From assembly GCA_052389695.1 (NCBI GenBank), contig JBQTHQ010000057.1:11774-75773 (forward strand): a stretch of 64,000 nt of DNA, in the 5' to 3' direction. Below, piece by piece: positions 33,014 through 56,699 of the stretch. The notes below the pieces were generated by a model, which worked only from the letters and a program-made list of their open reading frames with translations, made no database searches and had not been told where the DNA came from. How positions within the stretch are numbered: the first letter of the stretch is position 1; every line of letters starts with the position of its first letter. This stretch comes from Bacteroidota bacterium (GTDB taxonomy: Bacteria > Bacteroidota > Bacteroidia > 2-12-FULL-35-15). The position numbers and the translations under genes are program-made.

Positions 33014-33025
33014 TCCTAAAGACGT

Positions 33026-36587: not shown

Positions 36588-36607
36588 TGCATAAATATTT
36601 ATCAAAA

Positions 36608-37837
36608 ATGAAGCACTTAAAATATATTTATGTCCTTTCTGCTATAACCGCAGTGGTTTGTTTGCTGGTAGCTTGTGAAAAGATGCTGCCTCCAGCACCA
36701 AAGGACGATGAAATCTTAGACGGCCCCATTGAGGGACTTTCGGCAGCCGAAAATGCTCAATTCCTGGCAGGAGATATTGCCTTCAACGATGAAGTGTTCA
36801 CACCTGAAAACGGACTTGGACCTTATTTCGTTGCTTCCTCCTGTGGAAGCTGCCATGCCGGGGATGGTAAAGGACATCCTTTTACCACGCTTACCCGATT
36901 CGGGCAAAGCGATAGCACAGGCAATCAGTTTCTTGATTTTGGCGGTCCGCAATTGCAAAACAGGGCAATACCAGGTTATACACCCGAACAAATACCTACC
37001 GGAGCATCGTTCGCTAAATTTACTCCGCCTGCCACTACCGGCTTGGGTTTTCTCGGAGCATTAACAGATGCACAGATACTTGCCAATGCTGATCCGAATG
37101 ATGTAAACGGAGATGGAATTTCAGGAGTTGCTAATTGGATTTCTCCACCTCCTTATTTTCAGCCCCGTTGGTTTCATCAGCCGGTTAGTGGTAAATACGT
37201 TGGTCGTTTTGGTAAAAAAGCCGCAGCCATTGACCTGTGGCATCAAACAGTAAATGCCTACAATCAGGATATGGGCGTAACTTCTGAATATTCCAACGTT
37301 GAGCCTGCGGTAAATGGAGTACAAAGTCCTTATGGCGACAATGCCCCTGATCCTGAAGTAGCATCTTCAAGAGTTCTGAACGTGCTGTTTTATTTAAGAA
37401 CACTGAAAGCCCCGGTGCAACGCAATCAAAATGATGCAGAAGTACAAAGCGGAAAAAATGTGTTTAATAATATCGGTTGTAATAAATGTCATACCTCTGA
37501 ATGGACAACGCCACAATCGGATATCGCTGCTTTATCCTATAAAACATTTTATCCTTACACGGATCTATTGTTACACGATATGGGTTCAGGACTGGATGAC
37601 GGTTATACCGAAGGAAACGCCAAAACAAGTGAATGGAAAACTCCGCCTCTTTGGGGATTGGGATTATCAAAGAACTCACAGGGCGGGCAATATTTCCTGA
37701 TGCATGATGGTAGAGCAGGCAGCATTGATGCAGCCATTCAATTGCATGAAGGAGAAGCTCAGAACATTAAAAATCAATACAACCAGCTGAGCGAAACAGA
37801 CAGACAAAACCTGATTAAATTCCTTGAAAGTTTATAA
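36608..37837 (+). CDS. di-heme cytochrome c peroxidase-like lipoprotein (DUF1111 family)
   Basis: Two CxxCH motifs (CGSCH, CNKCH). Lipoprotein signal MKHLKYIYVLSAITAVVCLLVAC from ATG 36608; the TTG at 36587 given by the ORF track is less likely. Confidence 0.65.
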   Translation: MKHLKYIYVLSAITAVVCLLVACEKMLPPAPKDDEILDGPIEGLSAAENAQFLAGDIAFNDEVFTPENGLGPYFVASSCGSCHAGDGKGHPFTTLTRFGQSDSTGNQFLDFGGPQLQNRAIPGYTPEQIPTGASFAKFTPPATTGLGFLGALTDAQILANADPNDVNGDGISGVANWISPPPYFQPRWFHQPVSGKYVGRFGKKAAAIDLWHQTVNAYNQDMGVTSEYSNVEPAVNGVQSPYGDNAPDPEVASSRVLNVLFYLRTLKAPVQRNQNDAEVQSGKNVFNNIGCNKCHTSEWTTPQSDIAALSYKTFYPYTDLLLHDMGSGLDDGYTEGNAKTSEWKTPPLWGLGLSKNSQGGQYFLMHDGRAGSIDAAIQLHEGEAQNIKNQYNQLSETDRQNLIKFLESL

Positions 37838-38274
37838 TGGACAGAAAAGAATTTATTAAAGCCTGTGGTTACTCTTGTTTAGGGTTGATTGGGCTTTCAC
37901 TTTTGGATTCATGTACTTCTGTAAAATACGTACAAGCCGGGGCTGAAAACAGCCAGCTAAAAATTGCCCGGTCTGAATTTTTTGAAGTGAAAAAAAATAA
38001 AACGCAAACCAGGCGATATGTAATAGTGAAAGCAAACACACTTAATTTTCCGATTGTACTGTACCGTTTTTCTGATGCTGATTTTTCAGCTTTGTTACTT
38101 CAATGTCCGCATCAGGGAATGGAGTTGAACGTAAATGGTGATTTGCTTTCCTGTTCAGCACATGGCAGCGAGTTCAACAACAAAGGAGAAATTATACAAG
38201 GCCCCGCAGAACAAGGTTTAAAAAAATACAAGGTTACTTCTGATACTGAAAATATTTATATACACCTAACATGA
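37837..38274 (+). CDS. Rieske [2Fe-2S] domain protein
   Basis: CPHQG ... CSAHGSEF Rieske-type motifs; N-terminal signal/Tat-like segment. Confidence 0.65.
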   Translation: MDRKEFIKACGYSCLGLIGLSLLDSCTSVKYVQAGAENSQLKIARSEFFEVKKNKTQTRRYVIVKANTLNFPIVLYRFSDADFSALLLQCPHQGMELNVNGDLLSCSAHGSEFNNKGEIIQGPAEQGLKKYKVTSDTENIYIHLT

Positions 38275-39497
38275 AAAAAGTTTTTCTACTTCTTATCGCA
38301 GTTATTTCAATAACTGAATGTTTTGCACAAAAGGATACTTCCTTTATAAACCGGATCCCGCAAGATACAAGCAAATTAAAAATGAATATGGATGCGGTTT
38401 ACAACCGTCCGTTTTTACAAATGGGAAAAGTACCTATTTCGATTGGTGGTTATGTGGAAGCCAATAGCAGCTATTTTGGTACGGATGGCGTGAGCGAAGG
38501 GCTTTCTTTCCAGCTTCCACGCTTAACTGTATTTATGTCTTCCACAATAAAAAAGCGCATTAAATTTCTTTCAGAGATTGAATTTGAAGAAGGTGGCAGA
38601 GAAGTTAACATAGAGTTTGCTTCTATGGATATTGAACTGCATCCCTTATTTAATTTACGGGGTGGTGTGATAATGAACCCAATCGGTGCATTCAACCAAA
38701 ACCATGATGGTCCGAAATGGGAATTTATCAGCAGGCCCATATCGGCAACAACCATTATTCCTTCCACCTGGAGCAATGTAGGCTTTGGTATTTTCGGAAA
38801 GTATGGACGTAATAATTTAGTATGGGCTTACGAAGCCTATTTTACCAATGGCTTTGATGATAAAATTATTGCCAATTCAGAAAACAGGACATGGCTCCCT
38901 GCGAGTAAAGAGAACCATGAACGTTTTGAAGAAAGTTTTAACGGTGTTCCACTCATAACCGCAAAAACAGCCATTCGACACAGGAACATCGGTGAAATTG
39001 GCATCTCCTGGATGGGCGGTGTTTACAATAAATTTCAGGAAGATGGTTTAGCGTTGGATGTAAAAAGGCGAGTAGATTTATTTGCTATTGATTTTAATAC
39101 AACTCTACCTGGAAGCAGAACCTATATTAATGGTGAATGGGTATGGGCTACTATTGACGTACCAGCTACCTATTCACAGCAGTTCGGCAATAAACAGGAA
39201 GGTGGATTTTTAGATATCGTCCAGCCTATTATAAGGCGTAAAATGTTCGGATGGGAAAACAGTACCATTAATATTGCTTTCAGAACAGAGTATGCAGATT
39301 ATAATGTCGGCACTTTTAATGAGACAGGAGGAAATATGTATGACCACATCATTGCGATTGTACCAGGTATCAGCTTCCGGCCATCACCTCAAACCGTTAT
39401 CAGGGGGAATTACCGATACCATTGGCAAAGGGATCTGTTAGGAAATCCACCTGCATTAACCGCAGGTTTCCAGTTTGGATTTTCCACTTACTTCTAA
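38271..39497 (+). CDS. outer-membrane beta-barrel protein
   Basis: Signal peptide MKKVFLLLIAVISITECFA, alternating amphipathic beta pattern, C-terminal FSTYF. Confidence 0.5.
   Translation: MKKVFLLLIAVISITECFAQKDTSFINRIPQDTSKLKMNMDAVYNRPFLQMGKVPISIGGYVEANSSYFGTDGVSEGLSFQLPRLTVFMSSTIKKRIKFLSEIEFEEGGREVNIEFASMDIELHPLFNLRGGVIMNPIGAFNQNHDGPKWEFISRPISATTIIPSTWSNVGFGIFGKYGRNNLVWAYEAYFTNGFDDKIIANSENRTWLPASKENHERFEESFNGVPLITAKTAIRHRNIGEIGISWMGGVYNKFQEDGLALDVKRRVDLFAIDFNTTLPGSRTYINGEWVWATIDVPATYSQQFGNKQEGGFLDIVQPIIRRKMFGWENSTINIAFRTEYADYNVGTFNETGGNMYDHIIAIVPGISFRPSPQTVIRGNYRYHWQRDLLGNPPALTAGFQFGFSTYF
39454..39497 (+). repeat. 44-bp direct repeat, left copy (3' end of the outer-membrane-protein gene)
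   Basis: cattaaccgcaggtttccagtttggattttccacttacttctaa recurs at 50831-50874 with one mismatch. Confidence 0.85.
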
Positions 39498-39608
39498 CGA
39501 ATATTCCAATTTCACTTTATAATCAGGTGGCTTTTTAAAAATATATTTAAGTATTTGCTTAAATAATAAAATAATTATATCTTTGCCCATGAAAATAATA
39601 TCAATTCT

Positions 39609-39989
39609 ATGAGTGATAAAAATGTATGTATTCGTGTCTATGCTGATGTCACGCAAATAAAGCAATGCAGAGACAGAGTAAAAGCAAATGAAAAATCATT
39701 AGAACAGCTTTCCAATGTGCTTTCGTTAGCAGGGAATGATGTTCGTTTGAAGATCCTGTATTTATTGGAGGGTGAAAATGAATTGTGTCCCTGTGATATG
39801 AGCGATATTTTAGGAATGAGTATTCCGGCAGTATCACAACATCTCAGAAAATTAAAAGACGGAAACATTATTGAAGCAAGGCGTACCGGCCAAACCATAT
39901 ACTATTCGCTTAAAGATGAACATTTGAAAATCCTTAAACCGTTTTTCAGATACATCAATGCACAAAATCTTACTTCAGAAAAAGCATGA
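39609..39989 (+). CDS. ArsR/SmtB family metalloregulator
   Basis: LAGNDVRLKILYLLEGENELCPCDMSDILGMSIPAVSQHLRKLKDGNII matches the HTH_5 and metal-site pattern. Confidence 0.75.
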   Translation: MSDKNVCIRVYADVTQIKQCRDRVKANEKSLEQLSNVLSLAGNDVRLKILYLLEGENELCPCDMSDILGMSIPAVSQHLRKLKDGNIIEARRTGQTIYYSLKDEHLKILKPFFRYINAQNLTSEKA

Positions 39990-40585
39990 AACAGGGAAAG
40001 CTAATAGGAGCCGGACTTTTATCAGCTTTTGCGGCATCGCTTTGCTGCATTACCCCCATTCTTGCCTTAATTGCGGGAACAAGCGGAGCAGCTTCTAATT
40101 TTTCGTGGATTGAACCTGCACGGCCTTATCTTATTGGATTTACAATCTTAGTCTTAGGTTTCGCCTGGTATCAGAAGTTGAAGCCTGCAATTAAAGCTGA
40201 CAATTGCGGATGCGAAGTCAAAAAAACATCTTTTCTGCAATCAAAGCTATTCTTAAGCATTGCTACTGTTTTTGCAGCAATAATGCTTTCATTCCCTTAC
40301 GTTTCTCCGGTTTTTTATTCAGAGGAAAAAAAGCAGATTATAATAATAGATAAAACCAATCTTCAAACAGCAGAATTTGAAATTTCAGGAATGACTTGCG
40401 AACGCTGTGAAGATCATGTAAAACATAAAGTAAACAAACTTACAGGGATTGTTAATACGACTGTTTCTTACAAAAACGAAAATGCAGTTGTACAATTCGA
40501 TAGCACACAAACAACAAGAGAAAAAATCACAGAAGCAATTAATTCAACCGGATACGAAACAACAGCGATATTCATCAAAAAATAA
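39986..40585 (+). CDS. MerT-like mercuric/heavy-metal transport protein fused to C-terminal HMA domain
   Basis: TM1 with CC pair (ASLCCITPILALIAG) typical of MerT. C-terminal GMTCERCEDHV heavy-metal-associated motif. Confidence 0.65.
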   Translation: MKQGKLIGAGLLSAFAASLCCITPILALIAGTSGAASNFSWIEPARPYLIGFTILVLGFAWYQKLKPAIKADNCGCEVKKTSFLQSKLFLSIATVFAAIMLSFPYVSPVFYSEEKKQIIIIDKTNLQTAEFEISGMTCERCEDHVKHKVNKLTGIVNTTVSYKNENAVVQFDSTQTTREKITEAINSTGYETTAIFIKK

Positions 40586-40591
40586 AATCAC

Positions 40592-41329
40592 ATGAAAAAA
40601 CTAATTCTATTATCATGTTCACTACTTGCAGTATTAGCGTTTACATTTAATTCATGTAGTAATAAGCAACAGGCAGGAGCCATTTCATTTTATGAAGTGC
40701 CTTTAGTATGTGGTGCAGCTCCCGAAATTGGCTGTGGAAGCCGTATTAAACCTCTCTTTATAGATACTGAAAAGGAAAAACAAATCAAAGAATCATGGTC
40801 CAACAGAGAAGGAACTGTAATTGCGATTGTATGGAACGAAACAGATAAAAACGCCCGTGAAAATTTAATTCAACCACTTTTTAAAAAACATACCATAGAT
40901 GCAAAATTGATTGCGGATAGCGATAAGATAACCGGGCTTACCGCAAGCCTAACAGGAAAAGACCAATGGTATAAGGGCATGGATGTTGACAAATTAAGCC
41001 TGGAAGAAGCGGGCGTAATTGCAGAAACCATGACCGAATTTGCAAAGAAAGACGGATTGATTAATGTGGAAGAAGCGGCTGCAATTAAAAAAGACATGGA
41101 AGATTATTTTAAAAAGGAATTGGTGCTTGTAAGAACGTGTGATGAATTAAAAAGCGAGGAAACACAGGAGAAATGGAGAAAAGATGGGTACAATATTTAC
41201 GCAAAGCACATTGGAAAGGAAAGAGCAGATTCAGTAAGTGTAAGGTTTATGAAAATACAGGAAGATGCCTGTAAAAAAGAATCTGCCTGCACTAAAGAAG
41301 GTAAAAAGGACTGCTGTAAAAAGAAGTAA
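40592..41329 (+). CDS. lipoprotein with Cys-rich C-terminus
   Basis: Lipobox LAFTFNSCSN; C-terminal CKKESACTKEGKKDCCKKK. Confidence 0.4.
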   Translation: MKKLILLSCSLLAVLAFTFNSCSNKQQAGAISFYEVPLVCGAAPEIGCGSRIKPLFIDTEKEKQIKESWSNREGTVIAIVWNETDKNARENLIQPLFKKHTIDAKLIADSDKITGLTASLTGKDQWYKGMDVDKLSLEEAGVIAETMTEFAKKDGLINVEEAAAIKKDMEDYFKKELVLVRTCDELKSEETQEKWRKDGYNIYAKHIGKERADSVSVRFMKIQEDACKKESACTKEGKKDCCKKK

Positions 41330-41331
41330 TT

Positions 41332-41550
41332 ATGTCGAAAGAAGTTATATTAAAATCCGTTATTACCTGTCCTCATTGCGGGCATCAAAAGGAAGAAACC
41401 ATGCCTACTGATGCTTGCCAGTACTTCTATGAATGTGAAACCTGCAATGCAGTGCTGAAACCCAAGCAGGGAGATTGTTGTGTGTTTTGCAGTTACGGAT
41501 CAATAAAATGTCCGCCTATCCAGGAAAGCGGGAAATCATGCTGCCATTGA
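41332..41550 (+). CDS. small Cys-rich zinc-ribbon-like metal-binding protein
   Basis: 72 aa with CPHCG, CETC, GDCCVFC, KCPP, SCCH clusters. Confidence 0.4.
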   Translation: MSKEVILKSVITCPHCGHQKEETMPTDACQYFYECETCNAVLKPKQGDCCVFCSYGSIKCPPIQESGKSCCH

Positions 41551-41581
41551 TACAATAAGGTTAAAAAATGTAGTTATGTGA

Positions 41582-41938
41582 TTGACAACAAGTTGTTTTA
41601 ATGCTTATATTTGTCCCGTGAGATATTTCAGCTTCATATTATCTATATACTTCTTATGGCTTTCAACAGTAAGTTGTGCTGATGAAACGTATGAGCATGA
41701 TAACTGCCAGTCAGTTGCTTGTGCCCACATAGCTGCCGGAAATGATAATGGAGATGATTGTGCAGACGATGCTTGTTCTCCTTTCTGTACTTGCAGTTGT
41801 TGTCATGGCTTCACGTTAATTTCAAATTTCAGTAATAAAATAATTGTATCAATAGAATCCCCTTCTCTTAATACATATTCCGAAAATCATCTGCAAGAGA
41901 TTTCCCGATCCATCTGGCAACCGCCTAAAATTTCCTAA
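41582..41938 (+). CDS. Cys-rich hypothetical protein
   Basis: 118 aa; DACSPFCTCSCCHGF cluster; weak ORF. Confidence 0.25.
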   Translation: MTTSCFNAYICPVRYFSFILSIYFLWLSTVSCADETYEHDNCQSVACAHIAAGNDNGDDCADDACSPFCTCSCCHGFTLISNFSNKIIVSIESPSLNTYSENHLQEISRSIWQPPKIS

Positions 41939-42215
41939 CCGTTTTTTTGATGAATTAATTGCTAAGGATTAAACTGTCCTGGCTTAAGCTATTGCTGCTT
42001 ATTCATCACATTAATAGTATTCAACTGTTAGGTTTCCTGTATTTAACTTGGTTAAAAAAAAGAAAAAAGTAACCCTTATGGGTATTATGAAAACAGGGTT
42101 TATTATCCTGTTTGTAATGCTTATCCTGTATAGGAATAATTGACCGGGTGATACATTATATTCATCACTTAAATAAATAATCTTGACTGCGAACAGTCAA
42201 ACAAAAAAATAAACT

Positions 42216-42440
42216 ATGAAAAAATTAATTTTCTCAGCAGCTATATTGGCACTTATCACAGTTTCATCCTGCAACAATGAAGTAGATACAAAAATGTGTG
42301 AGGAACACGCAAAGAATTGTCCTAAATCTGAAAATTGCCCTGAACACCCCGAATGCGAAGCGCATGAACAGTGTGCAAAGGATAAGGAGTGCAAAGATCA
42401 TCCTGCCTGCGCTGCATTTGATAAGAAAAAAGGATCCTGA
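42216..42440 (+). CDS. Cys/His-rich periplasmic lipoprotein (metal-binding candidate)
   Basis: Lipobox ITVSSCNNE; repeated CPEHPECEAHEQCAKDKECKDHPAC motif. Confidence 0.5.
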   Translation: MKKLIFSAAILALITVSSCNNEVDTKMCEEHAKNCPKSENCPEHPECEAHEQCAKDKECKDHPACAAFDKKKGS

Positions 42441-42516
42441 TAATCAAAATAAAACGGAGAGTGCAGTTTCAGTAATCTGAAGCTGTACCCATTCTGTAAC
42501 CTTAATATTTAAAAAT

Positions 42517-45500
42517 ATGATTGATAAACTTATTGGGTTTTCCATAAGAAATAAATTCATCATCGGGCTTTTTACAGTTGCCCTGATTGTATGGGGAGTT
42601 TATTCTTTAAGGAAATTACCTATTGATGCCCTGCCTGATATTACAAACAATCAGGTGCAGGTGATAACAGTAGCTCCTACGGTTGCTGCCCAAGAGGTAG
42701 AGCGTTTTATAACTGCTCCTATTGAAATTACAATGGCCAACCTGCCGGATATAACGGAAATACGTTCTATATCAAGGTTTGGATTGTCTGTAATAACCAT
42801 TGTCTTTGAGGATAAAGTGGATGTTTACCACGCAAGGCAATTGGTAAATGAACGCTTAAAACTTGCCGAAGATCAAATTCCAAATGGTTTAGGAAAACCT
42901 GAACTTGCACCGGTAACCACAGGTTTGGGAGAAATATATCACTACACGCTCCATGCAGCCAAAGGGTATGAAAAAAAGTATTCTGCAATGGAACTGCGAA
43001 CCATCCAGGATTGGATTGTAAGGCGACAGTTAGCAGGAACTCCCGGAATTGCTGAAATAAGTGCCTGGGGAGGACAAGTAAAACAGTATGAGGTAGCTAT
43101 TGATCCGGCCAGGCTCAACAGCATGAATGTTACCATTCCTGAAGTGTTTGAAGCGCTTGAACAAAGCAATGAAAATACAGGTGGCGCTTATATAGAGAAA
43201 GGCTCTAATGCTTATTTTATAAGGGGCATAGGGCAAGTTACCAGTCTGGAAGACATTCAAAACATTGTAGTAAAAAGAGTAAATGGAATACCGGTTCTTA
43301 TCAGCAATGTGGGAGAAGTGCAGTTTGGAAGTGCGCCCCGCTATGGAGCCATAACCCGGAATGGCGAAGGTGAAGTAGTTGCAGGAATTACATTAATGCT
43401 GAAAGGAGAAAATTCTTCGGAAGTAATTCAAAATGTGAAAGAGCGTATAGAAAACGTGCAAAAGTCCTTACCTGAAGGTGTAGTGATTGAACCTTTCATT
43501 GACAGGTCGGAATTAGTAGATCGGGCTATTCATACCGTTTCAAAAAACCTGATTGAAGGAGGACTAATTGTAATTTTTATCCTGGTATTGCTCTTAGGTA
43601 ATTTACGGGCAGGGCTGGTAGTAGCTTCTGTTATTCCTTTAGCAATGCTTTTTGCCATTGCCATGATGAATGTTTTTGGAGTATCAGGAAACTTAATGAG
43701 TTTGGGAGCTATTGACTTTGGACTTATTGTGGACGGTGCAGTCATTATTGTAGAAAGTATCGTTCATCGAATAACCAGCAGTCGTTTAACTAATGGACAG
43801 ACTAACTTACTCTCCCGGCAGCAAATGGATGAACAGGTATATGAAGCATCCGTTAAGATTCGTCAGTCAGCAGCCTTTGGTGAAATAATTATTCTAATTG
43901 TGTACTTGCCAATTTTGACATTAGTTGGCATAGAAGGAAAGATGTTTAAACCAATGGCACAAACAGTTGGCTTTGCTATTCTTGGAGCGTTGATTCTTTC
44001 ACTTACTTATGTACCCATGATGTCCGCACTTTTCCTTAGCAGAAAAACTGAACATAAAAGAAACATTTCCGATAAAATAATGGATTTCTTTCATCGCTGG
44101 TATGAACCATTGATACTTGGCGCACTGAAATATAAAAAGACCGTGATTATTTCATCCGTAGCATTGTTTTTAATCAGTTTACTTGTATTCTCACGTATGG
44201 GTGGTGAGTTTATTCCAACGCTGGAGGAAGGAGATTTAACCGTTGAATTTGCAATGATGCAAGGGACCTCTTTAACACAAATGGTTGAAGCCACTTCAAA
44301 GGCTGAGAAAATTTTAAAAGAGAAATTCCCGGAGGTAAAACAGGTAGTATCGAGAATAGGAGCAGCAGAAATTCCCACTGATCCCATGCCTATTGAACGG
44401 GCTGATATAATGATTTCCATGAAAGAAAAAGATGAATGGACAAGTGCTGAGAGTAAAGAAGAAATGATGGAAAAAATGGAAGCAGAATTATCCGTTTTAA
44501 CAGGCGTAAATCTCGAAATGACACAACCCATTCAAATGCGGTTTAACGAATTAATGACAGGGATCCGACAGGATGTGGCTGTGAAACTTTATGGTGAGGA
44601 TATGGATATTCTCGCAAGAGAAGCGGATGAAATTGCCAAAATAATTTCAACCGTTGAAGGTGTTACAGAACCAACTCTTGAAAAAGTGAAGGGCTTACCA
44701 CAGATTACGGTTAAGTATGACAGGAGAAAGATGGCTCAATATGGACTTAAAATTTCGGAAGTAAACCGTGTGCTGAAAACAGCCTTTGCCGGAGAAGTGG
44801 CAGGGGTTGTTTTTGAAGGCGAAAAAAAGTTTGATATGGTAGTGAGATTGAAAAAAGAACTTCGGAAAGATATATCCGATGTAAGCAATTTATATATACC
44901 GCTTGAAGCAGGGACACGCATTCCATTGAACCAGGTAGCTGATGTTCAATTTCAGGAAGGTCCGGCACAGGTTTCAAGAGATGATACCAAACGTAGAATT
45001 TTTGTAGGCTTTAATGTTCGTGGCAGGGATGTTCAATCCACAGTGGAAGAAATACAGGGAAAGCTGGAGAGCCAATTAAAACTTCCTCCCGGTTATTACA
45101 TTACTTACGGAGGTCAGTTTGAAAACCTGATTGAAGCGAAGGAAAGGCTCTCTCTGGCCGTTCCGGTAGCCTTAGCCCTTATCATGCTTTTATTATTCTT
45201 CACTTTCGGTTCTATGAAACAAGCCGTACTCATTTTTACTGCAATTCCACTTTCTGCCATCGGAGGCGTATTCGCTTTATGGGCAAGAGGAATGCCTTTT
45301 AGTATCTCTGCCGGAATAGGCTTTATTGCACTCTTTGGGGTAGCTGTACTGAACGGAATTGTACTCATAGGATATTTTAATCAACTAAAAAAAGAAGGTA
45401 TGACCGACATTCTTTCACGTGTGCTTGAAGGTACAAAGGTTAGGTTAAGACCAGTGATAATGACAGCAGCCGTTGCCTCATTAGGCTTTTTGCCGATGGC

Positions 45501-46923
45501 TCTTTCAAACTCTGCCGGAGCAGAGGTTCAAAAACCTTTGGCTACGGTGGTGATCGGTGGACTTATTTCTGCAACGCTACTCACCTTATTAGTCTTACCT
45601 GTTCTCTATATGTTGTTTTCAGGTAAAGAAGAAAAAAAGGATGGGAATGCAACTACCGCTTCTGCCCCTTTAATGATTCTTTTACTTATAGGAGGTAGTT
45701 TTCTGATCCCATCAAAAGCTCTTGGTCAAACAAACACTCCCAATGCCCGGAAGATAACGCTTGATGAGGCCATCAGCGAAGCTGTGAAAAATCATCCAAG
45801 TATGAAAGCCGCTGGTTATGAAATTGAAGTTCAGCAAAAACTCAAAGGGACTTCATTTGATCTGAACAAAACAAATCTTGGTTTCGAGTATGGACAGATT
45901 AACAGCATAAATAACGATACGAAATTCACACTGTCGCAAGGGTTTGAATTTCCTACTGTTTACACCAATAAGTCGGCACTGGCAAATGCTAATATAAAAG
46001 CAAGTGAACAGCAATTAAATCTCACGAAGGCCGAATTAATAAAAAATGTTAAGAACGCCTATTATGAGTTTTCCTCTGCCAATGCTAAAAGAAAGTTATT
46101 GTTATTGCAGGATAGTTTGTTTAATGATTTTGCAAAGGCAGCGGAGTTGCGGTATAAAGTTGGAGAAAGCAATTACCTGGAAAAAACAACAGCAGAAATG
46201 CAGTTAATGGAAGTACGCAACCAGCTTGTTCAGGCAAAGGCTGATTGGCTAATTGCTCAGAAGCAACTGCAAATTTTGCTTAATACACAGGATGAAATTT
46301 CTATTGCAGAAGATGCTCCCGCTAAAAGGTCATTTACTCTTTTGCTCGATTCCTCCGCAATTGCTCAAAACCCTTATCTATCCTATTTAAAACAGCAGTT
46401 AGAGATTAGCCATTACGAAACTAAAATTGAGCGTTCAAAAATGCTTCCTGATTTTAGCATTGGATATTTTAATCAGTCCATCAATGGAATAGGATTTAAT
46501 GCCAATGGAACAGAGCAAAACTTTAGCTCTGGTAACCGCTTTACAGGCGTTCAGGCAGGTATTGCCATTCCTATTTGGTTCAAACCACACACTTCAAGAA
46601 TACAAGCTGCAAAGCTCAATGAAAAAATTGCTGAAAGCAATTTGCAGTCTCAGCAATTAATTATGCAGGGGCAGTTAAATACAATTGCTCAGGAGTTTCA
46701 AAAATACCAAAGCACCATAGATTACTATGAAAAGAGCGCACTTCCACAGGCCGAGCTGATTATACAGAATGCAAACAAAGCATATAAGGCCGGTGAAATT
46801 GGCTATTTTGAATATCTGCAAAGTTTAAATAGCGGAATAAAGATTAAGACCGATTACCTGAATTACCTGATGCTCTATAACCAATCCATCATTTCCATTG
46901 AACTAATTACAGGAGGAAAATAA
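42517..46923 (+). CDS. czcA: CzcA/CusA-family heavy-metal RND permease fused in frame to a TolC-like outer membrane factor
   Basis: First ~1045 aa match CusA/CzcA (start MIDKLIGFSIRNKFIIGLFTVALIVWGVYS, 12-TM organisation). Without an intervening stop, a signal-peptide-like segment (MILLLIGGSFLIPSKALGQ, ATG at 45673) follows, then a ~390-aa TolC/CzcC-like domain. Confidence 0.75.
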   Translation: MIDKLIGFSIRNKFIIGLFTVALIVWGVYSLRKLPIDALPDITNNQVQVITVAPTVAAQEVERFITAPIEITMANLPDITEIRSISRFGLSVITIVFEDKVDVYHARQLVNERLKLAEDQIPNGLGKPELAPVTTGLGEIYHYTLHAAKGYEKKYSAMELRTIQDWIVRRQLAGTPGIAEISAWGGQVKQYEVAIDPARLNSMNVTIPEVFEALEQSNENTGGAYIEKGSNAYFIRGIGQVTSLEDIQNIVVKRVNGIPVLISNVGEVQFGSAPRYGAITRNGEGEVVAGITLMLKGENSSEVIQNVKERIENVQKSLPEGVVIEPFIDRSELVDRAIHTVSKNLIEGGLIVIFILVLLLGNLRAGLVVASVIPLAMLFAIAMMNVFGVSGNLMSLGAIDFGLIVDGAVIIVESIVHRITSSRLTNGQTNLLSRQQMDEQVYEASVKIRQSAAFGEIIILIVYLPILTLVGIEGKMFKPMAQTVGFAILGALILSLTYVPMMSALFLSRKTEHKRNISDKIMDFFHRWYEPLILGALKYKKTVIISSVALFLISLLVFSRMGGEFIPTLEEGDLTVEFAMMQGTSLTQMVEATSKAEKILKEKFPEVKQVVSRIGAAEIPTDPMPIERADIMISMKEKDEWTSAESKEEMMEKMEAELSVLTGVNLEMTQPIQMRFNELMTGIRQDVAVKLYGEDMDILAREADEIAKIISTVEGVTEPTLEKVKGLPQITVKYDRRKMAQYGLKISEVNRVLKTAFAGEVAGVVFEGEKKFDMVVRLKKELRKDISDVSNLYIPLEAGTRIPLNQVADVQFQEGPAQVSRDDTKRRIFVGFNVRGRDVQSTVEEIQGKLESQLKLPPGYYITYGGQFENLIEAKERLSLAVPVALALIMLLLFFTFGSMKQAVLIFTAIPLSAIGGVFALWARGMPFSISAGIGFIALFGVAVLNGIVLIGYFNQLKKEGMTDILSRVLEGTKVRLRPVIMTAAVASLGFLPMALSNSAGAEVQKPLATVVIGGLISATLLTLLVLPVLYMLFSGKEEKKDGNATTASAPLMILLLIGGSFLIPSKALGQTNTPNARKITLDEAISEAVKNHPSMKAAGYEIEVQQKLKGTSFDLNKTNLGFEYGQINSINNDTKFTLSQGFEFPTVYTNKSALANANIKASEQQLNLTKAELIKNVKNAYYEFSSANAKRKLLLLQDSLFNDFAKAAELRYKVGESNYLEKTTAEMQLMEVRNQLVQAKADWLIAQKQLQILLNTQDEISIAEDAPAKRSFTLLLDSSAIAQNPYLSYLKQQLEISHYETKIERSKMLPDFSIGYFNQSINGIGFNANGTEQNFSSGNRFTGVQAGIAIPIWFKPHTSRIQAAKLNEKIAESNLQSQQLIMQGQLNTIAQEFQKYQSTIDYYEKSALPQAELIIQNANKAYKAGEIGYFEYLQSLNSGIKIKTDYLNYLMLYNQSIISIELITGGK

Positions 46924-46924
46924 T

Positions 46925-48319
46925 ATGCGAACCATAAATAAAATTATAAAAATGAAAACAAATATATTTTTCATAGCCTTACTCACGCTATCCATGTTAT
47001 TGAATAGCTGTGGTAACAAAGCGGAAGAAAAAACCGAAGCAGCCGGTGAAGCCCATGCAGAAGAAACCACAGAGGATGTGAAGTTTTTGGAACTTTCTGC
47101 CGAAAAGTTTAAAGCATCCGGTGTTGTATTGGGTTCTATCGAAGAAAAAAACATGAGTGATATCCTTAAGGTGAATGGTGTACTGGATGTACCTCCACAA
47201 AACTTGATCTCGATAAATGCGCCTTATGGCGGTTTTGTAAAGGAAACGGACTTGTTGGAAGGGACAAAGGTAAAGAAGGGACAAATGATTGCTGTTTTGT
47301 CTAATCCAGAATACATTCAAATGCAGCAGGATTACCTTGAAAACAAAGGAAAGTTAGACTTTTTGGAAAAAGAATACCAAAGACAGAAAGAACTGCAAGC
47401 AGAAAATGTTACATCCGCTAAAACTTTTCAGAAAGCTGAATCAGAATACAAAAGCACGTTTGCAATAGTCAAAGGTTTAGAGGCTAAACTTGCACTGCTT
47501 GGTATTAGTAAAAACAACGTACTCGAAGGTAATATTACCTCTAATATAGTGATTACTTCTCCCATTAACGGTTATGTTACTAAAGTAAATGCCAATATTG
47601 TAAAGTTTGTAAACCTACAGGATGTGATCTTTGAGATTGTGGATACAGAGCATTTGCACGTTGAATTAACTGTTTTTGAAAAAGATATTTCTAAGATAAA
47701 GGAAGGTCAAAAGATACGTTTTACGCTTGCTAATGATCCGGGTATAGAATTAACAGCAAGTGTTCACCTTATTGGAAGATCATTTGATGAAACACGTAGC
47801 GTCCGCATTCACGGCCATTTAGATACAGAAGATCCGCATCTATTACCAGGTATGTATGTGAATGCCGTAATAGAATTAGGAAATGAAAAGGTAAAAGCTG
47901 TTCCAAAAGATGCAGTGGTGTTATCAGACGGAAAAGAGTTCATATTTATTCGTAACAAAGACTGCCAGCAGCATCCTGAATGCAGCGCTCACGAGCGTTG
48001 TGAGCCGAACGAAAATTGCCCGGAGCATCCCGATTGTGAAGCACATGAAAAATGTGCCGGTAAATCTTGCAAAGAACATCCTCAATGTGCTGCACATGAT
48101 GGGGAAAGTAAGGCTGATACAGCAAGTGTGAAAAAGGTGGAAGACGAGTATTACACTTTTACTAAAGTAGAAGTAAAAACCGGTATTGCAGATGAGAGCT
48201 TTGTTGAGTTGAAATTAACTGAACCCATACCTTCCGGTGCGAAAGTGGTGACAAAGGGAGCTTTCTTTCTATTATCACAAACAAAAATGGGAGGTGCAAT
48301 GGATGCTTGTGGACACTAA
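46925..48319 (+). CDS. efflux RND periplasmic adaptor subunit (CzcB/CusB-like) with Cys/His-rich C-terminal extension
   Basis: Membrane-fusion-protein architecture (lipoyl and beta-barrel segments). C-terminal QQHPECSAHERCEPNENCPEHPDCEAHEKCAGKSCKEHPQCAAHD. Confidence 0.75.
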   Translation: MRTINKIIKMKTNIFFIALLTLSMLLNSCGNKAEEKTEAAGEAHAEETTEDVKFLELSAEKFKASGVVLGSIEEKNMSDILKVNGVLDVPPQNLISINAPYGGFVKETDLLEGTKVKKGQMIAVLSNPEYIQMQQDYLENKGKLDFLEKEYQRQKELQAENVTSAKTFQKAESEYKSTFAIVKGLEAKLALLGISKNNVLEGNITSNIVITSPINGYVTKVNANIVKFVNLQDVIFEIVDTEHLHVELTVFEKDISKIKEGQKIRFTLANDPGIELTASVHLIGRSFDETRSVRIHGHLDTEDPHLLPGMYVNAVIELGNEKVKAVPKDAVVLSDGKEFIFIRNKDCQQHPECSAHERCEPNENCPEHPDCEAHEKCAGKSCKEHPQCAAHDGESKADTASVKKVEDEYYTFTKVEVKTGIADESFVELKLTEPIPSGAKVVTKGAFFLLSQTKMGGAMDACGH

Positions 48320-48334
48320 AAAATATTAATACAT

Positions 48335-48400
48335 GGGCAGAGACCTGGTTTCTTTTGGTTTATAACAATAAACTTTTTTCATAGCCAGGTTCTCTTGCCC
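48335..48400 (+). terminator. long hairpin downstream of the efflux operon (terminator candidate)
   Basis: gggcagagacctgg ... ccaggttctcttgccc imperfect inverted repeat with a ~36-nt T-rich loop. Confidence 0.3.
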
Positions 48401-48407
48401 ACCATTA

Positions 48408-48785
48408 TTGAAGAAAATGAAATTTTATACAAAAATACCGGATGGATTAAAAACTTATTATCGGCAGGAACTTGGATTTTATCAGGTTGCTCTTAATAAA
48501 GGAGAGTTTTTAAATGCCTGGAAACATTTGGAAAACGCTCATATACTTGGTCAAGCCTATCCCATTGAGCATACAAAGGTACATTGGCTGATGCTAAAAT
48601 TTGGGTTTAAGATTAAAAGCATCAAAGAGATTGTTGGACAGATACCACGATTAATCTTTGGAGGGATCAAATCCTTTATTGGAAAAATACCGGTTGGAAA
48701 TACGGGTGGTTCTGATGTTTCAGCATTAAAGCCAATGGAAACACCATCACATTTAAAACAGATTTTAGAAAAATATATAGAATGA
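48408..48785 (+). CDS. hypothetical protein (DUF3703-like, commonly next to metal ATPases)
   Basis: 125-aa ORF overlapping the start of the ATPase gene; family call is from memory only. Confidence 0.35.
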   Translation: MKKMKFYTKIPDGLKTYYRQELGFYQVALNKGEFLNAWKHLENAHILGQAYPIEHTKVHWLMLKFGFKIKSIKEIVGQIPRLIFGGIKSFIGKIPVGNTGGSDVSALKPMETPSHLKQILEKYIE

Positions 48786-50791
48786 TAAACACAGATCCTA
48801 ACCATAAACACACCTACGATGCACAAGGCAATATGACTTGCTGCACCCTGGAGGAAAAGATAGATACCCAAACCGGCCAGCCCATCCTGAGTAACGTAAA
48901 GAAACCAGTTCTCCTTGCTAAAGAAAAACCGGCATGGAAGGAATATTTACCCTCCATCATTAGTTTTTTAATGCTGGCAACAGGTATAATAGTAGATAAC
49001 TTTTTTAAACCGGATTTTTATACGAATGCGGTTCGATTAATATGGTACATAGTCGCTTATCTCCCGGTGGGATTACCTGTAATGAAGGATGCAATAAAAG
49101 CCATTTCCAAAGGAGAATTTTTTACAGAGTTTATCCTGATGAGTATTGCCACTATTGGAGCATTTTTTATTGGTGAATATCCCGAAGGTGTTGCAGTAAT
49201 GCTATTCTATGCAGTGGGTGAATTATTCCAGTCCGCAGCCGTTAACCGTGCCAAGCGTAGTATAAAAGCATTGCTTGATATACGTCCTGATAAAGCCACT
49301 GTATTACGTAATGGAACATTAGTTGAAGCTGCACCGGACACGGTAAAGGTTGGAGAAATTATACAGGTAAAGGCGGGAGAAAAAGTAGCATTAGATGGGT
49401 TAATGCAATCGGCAGGAAGCACCTTCAATACAGCTGCCTTAACGGGAGAAAGTAAACCAAACTCTATAAAACAAGGCGAAACCGTTCTTGCCGGAATGAT
49501 TAATCTCGATAAGGTAGTGGAAATAAAAATTTCCAAAGTGTTTGCAGAAAGCTCTCTTGCCCGTATTCTCGACATGGTGCAAAATGCAAATTCACGCAAA
49601 GCTCAAACGGAATTATTCATTCGTAAGTTTTCAAAAATCTATACACCCATAGTTGTATTATTAGCTGTACTGCTAACCTTTATTCCTTACTTCTTTGTTG
49701 AGCAATATGTGTTTTCGGAGTGGCTGTATCGTGCGCTTATCTTCCTGGTTATTTCCTGTCCTTGTGCATTGGTAATTTCTATTCCACTCGGCTATTTTGG
49801 TGGTATCGGGGCTGCATCCAGGAATGGGATTTTGTTTAAAGGCTCTAATTATCTTGATCTTATGACAAAGATCAACACCATTGTAATGGACAAAACAGGA
49901 ACATTAACCAAAGGTGTGTTTAAAGTCCAGGAGGTAAATGCTGTACGTCTTCCCAAAGAAGAATTTGTGAAAATGGTTGCAGCCGTTGAATCTCAATCAA
50001 CACATCCCATAGCTAAGGCTATTGTTGAATATGCGAATGTGGGAGATAAGAATGTTCCGGTAAGCAATGTAGAAGAAATCTCAGGACATGGGCTAAAGGC
50101 AACTTACAAAGAATCTGAAATATTAGCCGGTAATACGAAACTGCTTAAGAAATTCAACATTGTTTACCCGGCTGAAGTGGATGCGATAACCGATACTATT
50201 GTAGTGGCAGCAATAAACAATGAATATGCCGGCTATATTACCATTGCAGATGAATTAAAAGATGATGCGAAAGAAGCTGTTTCTCAGATGCACCAAAGTA
50301 TTTCAAAAATTATTATGCTTTCGGGCGATAAGCAAAGTGTAGTAGATAAAGTCGCAAAAGAACTGAATATAGTAAATGCTTATGGCAGCCTATTACCTGA
50401 ACATAAGGTACAGAAGGTGGAAGAATTGAAAAAGGAAAGCAATCGTATTATTGCGTTTGTCGGTGATGGCATTAACGATGCACCTGTATTGGCATTAAGT
50501 GATGTAGGTATAGCGATGGGAGCTTTGGGTAGTGATGCCGCTATTGAAACTGCGGATGTAGTCATTCAAACGGATCAGCCTTCAAAAATCGTAACTGCTA
50601 TTAAAATCAGCAAGGCTACCCAACGAATTGTATGGCAAAATATATCCTTAGCTTTTGGGGTAAAGGCGATTGTGCTGGCTTTAGGAGCTGGAGGATTGGC
50701 TACCATGTGGGAAGCTGTTTTTGCCGATGTGGGTGTGGCTTTGCTCGCAATTTTGAATGCCGTAAGAATACAAAGAATGAAATTTAATTGA
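48782..50791 (+). CDS. heavy-metal translocating P1B-type ATPase (Zn/Cd/Pb-type)
   Basis: CPC motif (VISCPCALVIS), DKTGTLT phosphorylation site, GDGINDAP hinge. N-terminus has a CC pair but no canonical GMxCxxC. Confidence 0.85.
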   Translation: MINTDPNHKHTYDAQGNMTCCTLEEKIDTQTGQPILSNVKKPVLLAKEKPAWKEYLPSIISFLMLATGIIVDNFFKPDFYTNAVRLIWYIVAYLPVGLPVMKDAIKAISKGEFFTEFILMSIATIGAFFIGEYPEGVAVMLFYAVGELFQSAAVNRAKRSIKALLDIRPDKATVLRNGTLVEAAPDTVKVGEIIQVKAGEKVALDGLMQSAGSTFNTAALTGESKPNSIKQGETVLAGMINLDKVVEIKISKVFAESSLARILDMVQNANSRKAQTELFIRKFSKIYTPIVVLLAVLLTFIPYFFVEQYVFSEWLYRALIFLVISCPCALVISIPLGYFGGIGAASRNGILFKGSNYLDLMTKINTIVMDKTGTLTKGVFKVQEVNAVRLPKEEFVKMVAAVESQSTHPIAKAIVEYANVGDKNVPVSNVEEISGHGLKATYKESEILAGNTKLLKKFNIVYPAEVDAITDTIVVAAINNEYAGYITIADELKDDAKEAVSQMHQSISKIIMLSGDKQSVVDKVAKELNIVNAYGSLLPEHKVQKVEELKKESNRIIAFVGDGINDAPVLALSDVGIAMGALGSDAAIETADVVIQTDQPSKIVTAIKISKATQRIVWQNISLAFGVKAIVLALGAGGLATMWEAVFADVGVALLAILNAVRIQRMKFN

Positions 50792-50830
50792 TAAAATAAT
50801 TGCGTTAAATACCTTTGAGACAGCAGAGAA

Positions 50831-50874
50831 TATCTATTGGCATTAACCACAGGTTTCCAGTTTGGATTTTCCAC
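50831..50874 (+). repeat. 44-bp direct repeat, right copy (remnant of the outer-membrane-protein gene 3' end)
   Basis: cattaaccacaggtttccagtttggattttccacttacttctaa is preceded by attggca, which also precedes the left copy region at 39421 but with 27 nt missing. Confidence 0.85.
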
Positions 50875-50918
50875 TTACTTCTAATAAACTTTTTGAATTA
50901 AAAAGATTAATTTTACAC

Positions 50919-51563
50919 ATGATGATAATGATGCCACCCCGGTTCAGCAAATTCGTACTTACTTCACATATCACTTTCTCAGTTGGCTGGCTTGGTGCGG
51001 TGGCTGTATTTTTGGTTCTCGCCATAACTGGTGTGTCCAGCAATGATACTCAATTAGCTCGTGCCGCTTATCTTGCTATGGAATTGAGTGCCTGGTTCAT
51101 AATTGTTCCATTCTGTTTTGCTTCTTTACTAACTGGTCTTGTACAGGCACTTGGAACTAAGTGGGGTTTATTCAAGCACTATTGGATAATTGTAAAACTT
51201 ATTCTGACCATTGCTGGCACAATTATCCTATTGTTTCACATGAAGCCTATTAGTTACTTAGCAGGCATGGCAGCAAATACCGCATTCTCAAATAACGAAC
51301 TACCTGGATTGCGGATTCAACTCATTGCTGATGCAGGCGCAGCCTTATTACTATTATTGGCAATTACAACAATATCCGTGTACAAACCCTGGGGCAGAAC
51401 CCGATACGGACTACCTGTAAATCAAGAACGGTATGTGCAAGTAGAAAACGGAGGAACAACCAAAAAAAAATCATGGAGATTTTATTTGTTAATTGGGCTT
51501 ATCAGCTTGATTGTGCTGTTTATCATTATACACCTTCTTGGTGGTGGTATGAGTGGGCATTAA
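50919..51563 (+). CDS. integral membrane protein (4-5 TM)
   Basis: Start taken at ATG 50919 (MMIMMPPRF); the ORF-track start at 50862 lies inside the direct repeat. Confidence 0.4.
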   Translation: MMIMMPPRFSKFVLTSHITFSVGWLGAVAVFLVLAITGVSSNDTQLARAAYLAMELSAWFIIVPFCFASLLTGLVQALGTKWGLFKHYWIIVKLILTIAGTIILLFHMKPISYLAGMAANTAFSNNELPGLRIQLIADAGAALLLLLAITTISVYKPWGRTRYGLPVNQERYVQVENGGTTKKKSWRFYLLIGLISLIVLFIIIHLLGGGMSGH

Positions 51564-51585
51564 TTGCGGCACTGACCCACATGAA

Positions 51586-53799
51586 TTAGAATTTTGCTCC
51601 AATACTTACAAAGGCAGTTCTTCCATTTGCAGGCATTAATCCGGGACCAGGATAGCCTCCCGCCCTTCTTGTGAAATAATGCTCATCTGCAATATTATTT
51701 ATACCAGCTTTGAAGTTATATTTTTTCGCAAATAAATAGGTAAGAGAAACGTCCATTACGGTGTAACCTGGTATCTTACCAACTGTAGCTGTCGCATTTG
51801 GCATTTCTGTGTTGACCGCATCAGTGAATACTTCTGCAACCTGATTCATTTGGAAAGTAGCTGACAAATTCTTAAACAAATAAGTTACTCCATATCGTCC
51901 GATAGTTTGCGGTGCGTTTTCCATTTGCTTGTCTTCAATAGATTTTGCAGGATCATTGGCAATTGCCGGGTTATTCCACCGGGTGTATTTAGCATCCACA
52001 TAAGCAAAGGATACATACAAGCGAATGTAACCAACTCGTGAGCTATCAGTAAAAATTCTGATGGGATCAACTTCCACAAAGCTTTCCACACCTTTGCTTA
52101 CAGATGTTCCAATATTAGTACGGAAGGGCAGGTTATTTTGAGTAATAGTTCCTATACGATTATCATAATTCAAATAAAACCCTCCAATATCAAAACTTAG
52201 GTAGTTTTTTATTTTTCCTCTGAAACCAAAATCTGCATTGTAGCCGCTGGCATCTTTCAAATTCGGATCAATAATATCTGTCGTGGCGGAAGGAGTGAGT
52301 TCCGAATAAGTAACAGGCCGGTACGATTGACTAAAATTAGCGTAAAAATTAGTAGTTTCTGTTGTTTGAAACTCCGCTCCACATCCTAATAATAAAATAT
52401 TTCTTTGCTGTTTATTTTCCTGTATTGCTCCGGTTGATGTAGTGTTAATATATCCTTTGGCTGTTGAATTGATAATTTCATAACGTAAGCCGGGAGTTAT
52501 GCTTAGTCGCTTTCCAATTTTAAAAATATTTTCAGCAAAAAGAGCATAATTTTCTGTAATAAAATTCAAATCCCTTCCCCATTCTTTCCCATTTGAAGTG
52601 GCAGAAATAGTGAGGTCAAAATCACTTCCTGTTGTTCCTGTTCCGAGTTGTTTTCGTATGGTTGTACCCCTATAAACACGCACCCCGGCAGCAAGGGTGC
52701 TTTTCTGTTTTAATAAATTGTAAGATTTCAAAAAACGGATTTCACTTCCAAGATTGTTGTATGAATCACGGTCAACCTGGCGTGGATTGTATGAGTTTAA
52801 TGTGGTATTAAAATTATCCGCAACATTTATTGCTTTAGTATAACCAACGCTGTTTCGCTCCGCAATGGTGCTGAAGGCTTTCAGACTGATCTTAGTATTT
52901 TCATTGAATGTATAATCAATCGTAAGAGCAGACACATTCCAGGGAGTGCTAAACCAATTACGACTGCGAAGCGATTGTTTGGGATTGACTGCAAATAGCG
53001 AATCGGTAAGTCCTCCTGGTTGCTGGCTTTGATAATACATCCGGGTATATTGCAAACCTATATTAAGTTTTGATGATAACGCGAAATTAACCGAGGCATA
53101 TCCCGTATTGATATTGTATCTGCTGTTTTCTCTCCAGCCGTCAGCACTGCGGTGGTGAAAATACCCGTAATACGACACTTTTTTGTAAGTACCACCAATG
53201 GCATTGTAGGAGTTGAACAATCCGTAAGAACCGGTTGTTTGCTGTGCTTCAAAAACAAAAGGTTTGTAAGCAGAACCTTTTTTAATTTCATAGTTGAGTA
53301 ACCCGCCAAACTGAGGGCCATATTGTAATGAAGCTGCACCTCTCACTATTTCGATCTTTTCAACCGCTTCCATCGGGGGACTGAAATAAGATTCAGGATA
53401 ACCATACACTTCAGAAGAAATGTCGTAACCATTTTGTCGCACGTTAAATTCCCACGAACGGTTTGGGCTTAGCCCTCTTGTTGAAATACCTACCTGAATA
53501 CCCGACCCATCATTTTCCCAAATACTCACACCTGGTACTTTTCCAAATACCTGACGGGTATTATTCGTGGAGAGATCCGCATCCAGTAAACTTACTTTTA
53601 TCACTTCATTTTTTTTCCCGGAATAAATAGCAGTTCCCTGAATTTCAGGAAGGCGCTCTATTTCATTTTTGGAGAGTTTTTCATTTATTTCTATCTCCTG
53701 GAGATTTATCACCTTAGATGTGTCGGTCTCTTGTCCATAAGAAACAAAGGAAGATATTAAAATCACAAAGCAGATTAATTTAATTGTATGGTTATTCAT
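51586..53799 (-). CDS. TonB-dependent receptor
   Basis: Signal peptide, plug-domain region, 737 aa beta-barrel, C-terminal aromatic residue (SIGAKF). Confidence 0.75.
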   Translation of the reverse strand: MNNHTIKLICFVILISSFVSYGQETDTSKVINLQEIEINEKLSKNEIERLPEIQGTAIYSGKKNEVIKVSLLDADLSTNNTRQVFGKVPGVSIWENDGSGIQVGISTRGLSPNRSWEFNVRQNGYDISSEVYGYPESYFSPPMEAVEKIEIVRGAASLQYGPQFGGLLNYEIKKGSAYKPFVFEAQQTTGSYGLFNSYNAIGGTYKKVSYYGYFHHRSADGWRENSRYNINTGYASVNFALSSKLNIGLQYTRMYYQSQQPGGLTDSLFAVNPKQSLRSRNWFSTPWNVSALTIDYTFNENTKISLKAFSTIAERNSVGYTKAINVADNFNTTLNSYNPRQVDRDSYNNLGSEIRFLKSYNLLKQKSTLAAGVRVYRGTTIRKQLGTGTTGSDFDLTISATSNGKEWGRDLNFITENYALFAENIFKIGKRLSITPGLRYEIINSTAKGYINTTSTGAIQENKQQRNILLLGCGAEFQTTETTNFYANFSQSYRPVTYSELTPSATTDIIDPNLKDASGYNADFGFRGKIKNYLSFDIGGFYLNYDNRIGTITQNNLPFRTNIGTSVSKGVESFVEVDPIRIFTDSSRVGYIRLYVSFAYVDAKYTRWNNPAIANDPAKSIEDKQMENAPQTIGRYGVTYLFKNLSATFQMNQVAEVFTDAVNTEMPNATATVGKIPGYTVMDVSLTYLFAKKYNFKAGINNIADEHYFTRRAGGYPGPGLMPANGRTAFVSIGAKF

Positions 53800-56694: not shown

Positions 56695-56699
56695 AGGTC

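Follow-up and report, generated by a model that had tools for sequence, protein, structure and literature searches.

Why should the last few codons of a gene recur, complete with their stop, more than 11 kb downstream and on the far side of a set of heavy-metal efflux genes? The question is raised by a 64-kb stretch of DNA (64,000 nucleotides, nt; hereafter the window) on contig JBQTHQ010000057.1 of the Bacteroidota metagenome-assembled genome (MAG) GCA_052389695.1, where the tail of a gene for a putative outer-membrane beta-barrel protein (OMB) stands both at the end of that gene and, as an orphan, behind a P-type ATPase gene. A preliminary description of this DNA had taken the enclosed genes for an island inserted into the 3' end of the OMB gene by site-specific recombination. 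Our analysis indicates that the repeat is real, that it most likely has an ordinary explanation, and that the evidence for a new mobile cassette is poor. The features on which the question turns are the following.

38271-39497, plus strand: OMB, an intact gene for a 408-amino-acid (aa) putative outer-membrane beta-barrel protein, third gene of module A as defined below; beta-rich low-confidence model, no family match.
39454-39497, plus strand: repeat copy 1, the genuine end of OMB, 14 codons and TAA.
50792-50840, plus strand: a 49-nt spacer separating the orphan tail from the ATPase stop, with an in-frame TGA at 50816; shared with one related locus only (L088).
50841-50884, plus strand: repeat copy 2, the orphan OMB tail, 14 codons and TAA with no coding sequence upstream, read here as a gene relic.
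50931-51563, plus strand: memb, a 210-aa membrane protein (homologues of 205-212 aa, covering 90% of a 233-aa open reading frame, ORF).

Copy 1 (CATTAACCGCAGGTTTCCAGTTTGGATTTTCCACTTACTTCTAA), which begins CATTAACCGCAGG and ends TTCTAA, comprises the final 14 codons and the stop of OMB; copy 2, starting 11,387 nt further on, matches it at 43 of 44 positions, the sole mismatch being a G to A change at 50849. The preliminary description's report of a 44-nt recurrence about 11.3 kb downstream, with one mismatch, is thus borne out, although it had the second copy end at 50874, which is the start of an antisense ORF, and the true end is 50884. Two sites for the 44-mer were found in the window when up to three mismatches were allowed, against none in 100 dinucleotide-preserving shuffles; the repeat is real, and a chance match of this kind is not expected. 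Identity between the copies ends directly after TAA on the right, and on the left an ungapped extension matches at 8 of 14 positions. Apart from the 44-mer, no inverted or further repeats were found at the ends of the interval. The non-coding DNA on the inner sides of the repeats measures 111 nt on the left and 49 nt on the right.

Upstream of the orphan, just 21 codons are open before its stop, and they are preceded by the in-frame TGA. The 49-nt spacer itself has no significant similarity to the OMB gene, p being about 0.1 both for the whole gene and for a collinear chain. One candidate for extended OMB homology 5' of the orphan, a best local match of 18/22 at 39320-39341, was rejected, as it reached p = 0.012 only with the target cut down to the last 150 nt of the gene. 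A second candidate came from the preliminary description, which had pointed to an "attggca" motif before the repeat with 27 nt missing. The motif does precede both copies, but it stands 28 nt farther from the repeat in copy 1 and the two occurrences lie in different frames, so an in-frame deletion was set aside and the match attributed to chance. The antisense ORFs that end in SGKSKLETCG* at both copies are likewise present, but they are a mechanical consequence of the repeat and do not constitute independent evidence. To the right, the true start of memb is probably the ATG at 50931, judging from the length of its homologues, which would place memb outside the repeat.

We consider it about an even proposition that the second copy is the leftover of a second, deleted OMB copy that once stood just downstream of the P-type ATPase. 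The argument depends on the organization of the genes on either side of the first repeat, which we treat as two modules. Module A, (DtxR)-DHOR-Rieske-OMB, begins to the left of OMB; module B, CzcA/TolC-CusB-(DUF3703)-P-ATPase, lies with its accessory genes between the two repeats. The genes of module A other than OMB are listed first, followed by those of the enclosed segment.

35848-36507, minus strand: DtxR/MntR-type metal-dependent repressor of module A (Pfam Fe_dep_repress, Fe_dep_repr_C and FeoA), divergent from the DHOR operon.
36587-37837, plus strand: di-haem oxidoreductase (DHOR), first gene of module A (Pfam PF06537, 6.6e-62).
37837-38274, plus strand: Rieske [2Fe-2S] protein, second gene of module A (Pfam PF00355).
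39609-39989, plus strand: ArsR/SmtB regulator (Pfam HTH_5).
39986-40585, plus strand: MerT-HMA metal transporter (Pfam MerT plus HMA).
40592-41329, plus strand: 245-aa protein, no family match.
41582-41938, plus strand: DUF6660 protein (Pfam).
42517-46923, plus strand: start of module B, a 1468-aa CusA/CzcA pump of the resistance-nodulation-division (RND) type fused to a TolC-like outer-membrane factor (Pfam ACR_tran at residues 6-1034, OEP from residue 1082; NCBIfam TIGR00914 at 1203 bits, cutoff 701, and TolC).
46925-48319, plus strand: CusB/CzcB-type membrane-fusion protein (Pfam HlyD_D23 and HlyD_3).
48408-48785, plus strand: DUF3703 protein (Pfam PF12487), cleanly absent from L088 (indel 48416-48761).
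48782-50791, plus strand: Zn/Cd-type P1B heavy-metal ATPase, last gene of module B (Pfam E1-E2_ATPase and Hydrolase; NCBIfam TIGR01525 at 540 bits, cutoff 346, and TIGR01512 above cutoff).

Pfam and NCBIfam upheld the gene content given in the preliminary description (ArsR, MerT-HMA, CzcA/TolC, CzcB and P-type ATPase). On these domain assignments the enclosed genes are ordinary members of a CzcCBA/P1B-ATPase heavy-metal efflux cluster, with pump, membrane-fusion protein, outer-membrane factor and ATPase all present.

The two modules were followed through roughly 170 related loci (numbered with L below), which included 80 species-level Bacteroidota genome loci of OMB (L008-L087), 80 loci of memb and smaller sets. 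Module B lies directly 3' of OMB (order A-B, as in the window) in 13 of the 80 genome loci. The opposite order, B-A, with the ATPase followed by (DtxR)-DHOR-Rieske-OMB, is clear in seven (L008, L030, L034, L038, L053, L063 and L075) and is seen with only a distant ATPase in two more (L061 and L087). Plasmids carry both arrangements, B-A on pHALHY01 and A-B on Hymenobacter sp. HDW8 p_unnamed1. Since both orders are common, the position of the orphan is often occupied by a full OMB gene, and since the modules are habitual partners in many Bacteroidota, the enclosed genes are not a foreign insertion peculiar to this genome.

Close relatives show that the two junctions of the interval are shared. 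The left one, OMB followed by ArsR, is common to L001 (87% nt identity over 5.5 kb) and to L006 and L007, which are about 100% identical contigs from other samples. The right one is common to L088, an independent Logan assembly (SRR24524411) that is 90.6-93.3% identical in nt over 43927-57566 and is collinear with the window on the TonB-receptor side (93.3% nt identity) through 57566. Behind the ATPase gene of L088 stand the same 49-nt spacer and an orphan tail (L088 6558-6602). The orphans of the window and L088 differ at 2 of 44 positions, L088 having the G that the window's orphan has lost, plus one private change; because the G is retained there, the ancestral orphan would have been identical to the window's OMB tail at 44 of 44 positions. 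Four-fold degenerate sites in L088 have diverged from the window by 21%. By this comparison both junctions are old and stable, and the suggestion of an ancient event in the preliminary description is upheld, as both are shared with diverged relatives. Beyond L088, homology to the window ends at the ATPase stop in L090 (88% nt identity) and in L089, L172 and L175 (80-82%), with no orphan.

The same comparison bears on the possibility that the assembly is at fault, two sequences having been joined chimerically at a shared k-mer. The DNA does come from a MAG contig and repeats are classic points of misjoining, but L088, assembled independently, has the same right junction with the specific 49-nt flank on its left, the ENA and Logan contigs L006, L007 and L001 have the same left junction, and a misjoin would not make a second copy whose flanks are unique. 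With both junctions recovered in independent assemblies, an artefact is largely excluded, and we regard it as extremely improbable.

A parallel case makes loss of a second gene copy a natural explanation. L062, a locus in a distant Bacteroidota MAG with the order A-B, has an OMB protein 64% identical in aa to that of the window. About 185-210 nt after its ATPase lies a 252-nt OMB pseudogene fragment (L062 19448-19699) that corresponds to OMB residues 142-226, contains an in-frame stop, and is 74% identical in aa and 76.6% in nt to the intact OMB of the same locus. On its sequence the fragment is a decaying second gene copy, and as it is internal and diverged it cannot be an att site. An OMB remnant after the ATPase was found in L062 only, when checked against seven other A-B loci with at least 0.8 kb readable there; the window's lineage is the second case. 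With a decaying copy in L062 at the same position, a relic is a natural reading for the orphan of the window too.

We infer that an A-B-A arrangement arose in the ancestor of this lineage, by duplication or by homologous recombination between elements with the two orders. The redundant second A would then have been deleted from 49 nt past the ATPase stop into OMB, leaving its final 44 nt ahead of memb. The 11.3 kb between the copies would be an ordinary efflux partner module, embedded in a wider mosaic of metal-resistance genes to which a phage-like block is linked, and not a discrete mobile island. Several observations fit this sequence of events. The orphan is homologous to OMB and has neither a start nor coding sequence upstream, a full OMB gene stands at that position in seven to nine loci and on pHALHY01, and the L062 relic is independent. 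The orphan also carries this lineage's own synonymous choices (43/44 now, 44/44 in the ancestor), which argues for an origin within the lineage and not for an incoming element with a ready-made attachment site; the OMB tails of relatives vary freely at synonymous sites, with 6 of the final 27 nt changed in L018. Clean gene-sized deletions are demonstrably frequent in the cluster, as L088 is without DUF3703 and without memb (48416-48761 and 50930-51574), both differences being clean and gene-sized with about the first 11 nt of memb remaining, and memb is truncated in L152, L165 and L166.

Duplication followed by deletion, with relics left behind, is the tandem-duplication/random-loss route to changes in gene order. 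The window resembles such cases in that the circularly permuted orders A-B and B-A coexist, one gene is represented by a truncated, non-coding fragment at the place that its full copy occupies in the alternative order, and clean gene-sized deletions occur nearby. It differs in that no intermediate with two complete copies was seen and the relic is unusually short and well preserved.

Several points weigh against a deletion relic. No complete A-B-A arrangement was present among the loci fetched, whose 10-kb flanks are too short to reveal one. The adjacency of OMB to memb, which the model implies for an ancestor, was found nowhere. The abrupt left edge of the repeat in the ancestral 44/44 identity, together with an end exactly at the stop, is equally what an att core or one crossover would produce. 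The L062 fragment, being internal and diverged, is an analogy and not the same event. Finally, a neutral relic should drift, and the orphans of the window and L088 differ at only 2 of 44 positions against 21% at four-fold sites (P = 0.003).

That degree of conservation raises the question of whether the orphan and the 25 nt before it have a retained function, as a promoter or operator of memb, as an element at the end of the ATPase transcript, or through upkeep by gene conversion from the intact tail. Extending the comparison to 69 nt also gives two differences, and P falls to 2e-5. The orphan is nevertheless not clearly exceptional, being no better conserved than the other spacers shared with L088 (79-99% identical, pooled 89%). 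L088 keeps it despite the deletion of memb, a promoter and terminator scan around the orphan gave no hit on the repeat itself, an Rfam scan of the whole window returned no match, and other lineages have no orphan. We therefore consider a retained function very unlikely. As an observation in its own right, the intergenic spacers as a class (43927-57566) are more conserved between the window and L088 than are four-fold sites (79% identity), which suggests either dense regulatory constraint or patchiness of recombination.

An insertion of the kind first proposed has a documented counterpart in cis-mobilizable elements (CIMEs), an outcome of the decay of integrative and conjugative or integrative and mobilizable elements (ICEs and IMEs) in which attL and attR persist at the 3' end of a gene, as in the tandem arrays of streptococci (PMC5704250). 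Under this explanation the segment from ArsR to the ATPase entered the 3' end of OMB site-specifically and brought a replacement tail, the two 44-mers are attL and attR, and the integrase has been lost or acts in trans. The geometry is the classic one of direct repeats, with a left copy that completes the target gene, here functional, and an orphan on the right; as in CIMEs, no integrase or transfer genes lie between the repeats and the cargo is adaptive. The edges of the repeat identity are sharp, the DNA 3' of the OMB stop is highly variable among the close relatives L001, L018 and L002, and the orphan with the 25 nt upstream of it differs at 2/69 positions between the window and L088 where other spacers are 89% identical, although these boundaries were chosen post hoc.

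Other observations speak against such an element. Within the interval the scan detected no domain of a recombinase, integrase or transposase, in line with the remark of the preliminary description that no recombinase lies there, and it detected none in the other ORFs of at least about 150 aa in the 64 kb covered of the 102,273-bp contig (Pfam, E <= 1e-4); no cognate recombinase or partner ICE or IME was seen. Composition is not foreign, with a GC content of 0.37-0.40 inside the repeats against 0.36-0.41 outside. Metal genes occur on both sides, at 751-2501 on the left and in the module that follows memb on the right, so that the "cassette" sits within a much larger metal-resistance region. The supposed cargo is the usual neighbour of its target gene and adjoins OMB in 13 other genomes without an orphan, and a second lineage has an internal gene fragment, not a tail, at the corresponding place, which the insertion would leave unexplained. 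A 44/44 match to one lineage's synonymous codons is unexpected for an imported attP, and inner non-coding arms of 49 and 111 nt are very short for arm-type att sites.

Traces of an empty state were also lacking. Excision would be expected to leave the OMB tail plus TAAACTTTTTGAATT... as attB and ...GAGAATATCTATTGG plus the 44-mer plus CGAATATTCCAATTTC... as attP. No empty site, that is OMB followed by memb in the same orientation, appeared among the 80 loci of OMB, the 80 of memb and the smaller sets, and there was no presence/absence polymorphism. In other genomes memb adjoins AraC, HMA-MauE, ATPase or RND genes and never directly follows a same-strand OMB; in L166 OMB is convergent with the truncated memb. 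A search for the tail motif in six frames of every fetched locus recovered the orphan in the window only, that of L088 having been found by DNA match, and an exact 30-mer of the tail had no hits in JGI metagenome contigs or IMG/VR. The preliminary description had itself held that the same arrangement in relatives, with no empty site, would count against insertion; L001 shows this pattern for the left junction and L088 for the right one, although close relatives are few. Its claim of a discrete island made by site-specific recombination thus finds no support in the recombinase scan, the composition, the flanking metal genes, the habitual partnership of the enclosed genes or the search for an empty site, while the geometry it described, a gene tail duplicated around an 11.3-kb metal-efflux segment, stands. 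A decayed integrative element is in our judgement unlikely, if still to be taken seriously.

Bacteroides elements of the NBU1/NBU2 type offer a comparison from the same phylum. These integrate in the 3' ends of tRNA genes, carry their own integrase and share 13-14 bp of identity. The window is alike in showing short direct repeats of the sort that 3'-end integration gives, but an integrase of its own, a tRNA target and a 13-14 bp identity are features of NBU1/NBU2 of which none was seen here.

Insertion might also have been driven by homology without a dedicated enzyme, through a Campbell-type RecA crossover of a circle carrying module B and an OMB tail, or through the pasting of a patch of OMB tail and memb behind the ATPase, taken from another element in which memb follows OMB. 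A single crossover duplicates exactly the shared homology and would explain the ancestral 44/44 identity with its abrupt edges; the orphan goes back to the OMB sequence of this same lineage, memb is an accessory gene that wanders among many contexts, and modules are visibly shuffled among relatives. No donor arrangement was seen, however, either as OMB followed by memb or as a module B bounded by an OMB tail elsewhere, and a homology of 44 bp lies close to the minimum that RecA recombines efficiently. The present data fit a deletion relic equally, and we hold insertion by homology to be improbable.

The tail could, lastly, serve as a functioning handle for recombination: an att site for a recombinase whose gene lies elsewhere, on the phage-like element or the chromosome, or a homology patch maintained for precise gain and loss of the 11.4-kb module. 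We regard this as doubtful.

The protein whose tail is duplicated belongs to a large family. More than 5,700 homologues at 75-97% identity were found, nearly all in Bacteroidota MAGs, and the family's C-terminus is conserved (...GFQFGFSTYF). The preliminary label of an outer-membrane barrel is plausible from the AlphaFold model, in which a signal-like N-terminal helix is followed almost entirely by long beta strands (low confidence, pLDDT 47), and from the ...GFSTYF end, but it is unproven. The protein had no match in Pfam, NCBIfam or PDB. IMG/VR held no relatives of OMB, and only distant relatives of the ATPase. Across Bacteroidota, DHOR, Rieske protein and OMB make up a tightly conserved unit, in many cases accompanied by a divergent DtxR-like repressor, and this unit is nearly always found within metal-resistance regions; the three genes are kept together in nearly all of the 80 genome loci where the contig reaches far enough, and a DtxR-like repressor lies upstream of DHOR in most related loci.

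The enclosed cluster resembles the CzcCBA-type RND and P1B-ATPase (ZntA/CadA-like) clusters of pHALHY01 and Hymenobacter sp. HDW8 p_unnamed1, which likewise combine pump, membrane-fusion protein, outer-membrane factor, Zn/Cd ATPase and ArsR/MerT accessories, and are mosaic and borne on plasmids or elements. It differs in its 1468-aa fusion of pump and outer-membrane factor and in its tight linkage to the uncharacterized DHOR-Rieske-OMB unit under a DtxR-like repressor. Fusions of this kind (42517-46923 in the window) are widespread in Bacteroidota, including the plasmids pHALHY01 (1451 aa) and that of Hymenobacter HDW8. Exact-protein look-ups returned no record for the window's ATPase, its TonB receptor or the protein P0121.

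Directly after the CusB stop lies an intergenic hairpin of about 85 nt and about -31 kcal/mol (48320-48408). Copies were found at L088 4394-4481, L172 2160-2238, 3180-3248 and 8949-9028, L175 3553-3628, L089 983-1036 and L002 20026-20100, so that the element recurs at 76-93% identity across several metal clusters, in at most three copies per contig and ahead of different genes. RNAalifold predicted 21 pairs, three of them with compensatory changes, and Rfam held no match. The hairpin may act as an RNA, in regulation or as a terminator, or may be a small repeat element.

To the right of memb, the second set of metal genes begins with the following feature.

51586-53799, minus strand: TonB-dependent receptor, start of the right-hand metal module (Pfam).

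It is followed by HYC_CC_PP/DUF8199, AraC, HMA-MauE, a methyltransferase and more metal-related genes to the end of the window. On the left, a mobile-element or phage-like block of about 32 kb (3219-35339) lies between metal-resistance genes. The block contains iteron-like direct repeats of 49/85 nt (3219-3557), a 1527-aa N6-methylase, a 1581-aa SNF2 helicase, a weak terminase-like ATPase, an amidase, two T4 gp34-like tail-fibre proteins with a 59-nt repeat family (31712-33843) and an M23 peptidase. It also encodes, on the minus strand at 18691-20470, an AbiEii nucleotidyltransferase toxin with a DUF6088 partner, a type IV toxin-antitoxin or abortive-infection pair whose GC content of 0.34 is below that of its surroundings. 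As the end of the block adjoins the DtxR-DHOR operon in L001 and L002 too, block and metal genes appear to travel together.

What the repeat means for these bacteria depends on its origin. An active att site would make the segment a trans-mobilized metal-resistance cassette in an uncultured lineage, which the evidence does not favour. A recombination handle would amount to a system for exchanging cargo without an integrase in uncultured Bacteroidota, and would explain why the orphan is conserved above four-fold sites. Whatever its origin, a RecA-type exchange between the two 44-nt copies would remove the efflux module precisely, sparing OMB and leaving no scar. As a relic, the orphan would be a small historical marker, indicating that the orders A-B and B-A are interconvertible through a duplicated intermediate and that metal-resistance regions evolve by clean, gene-sized gains and losses.

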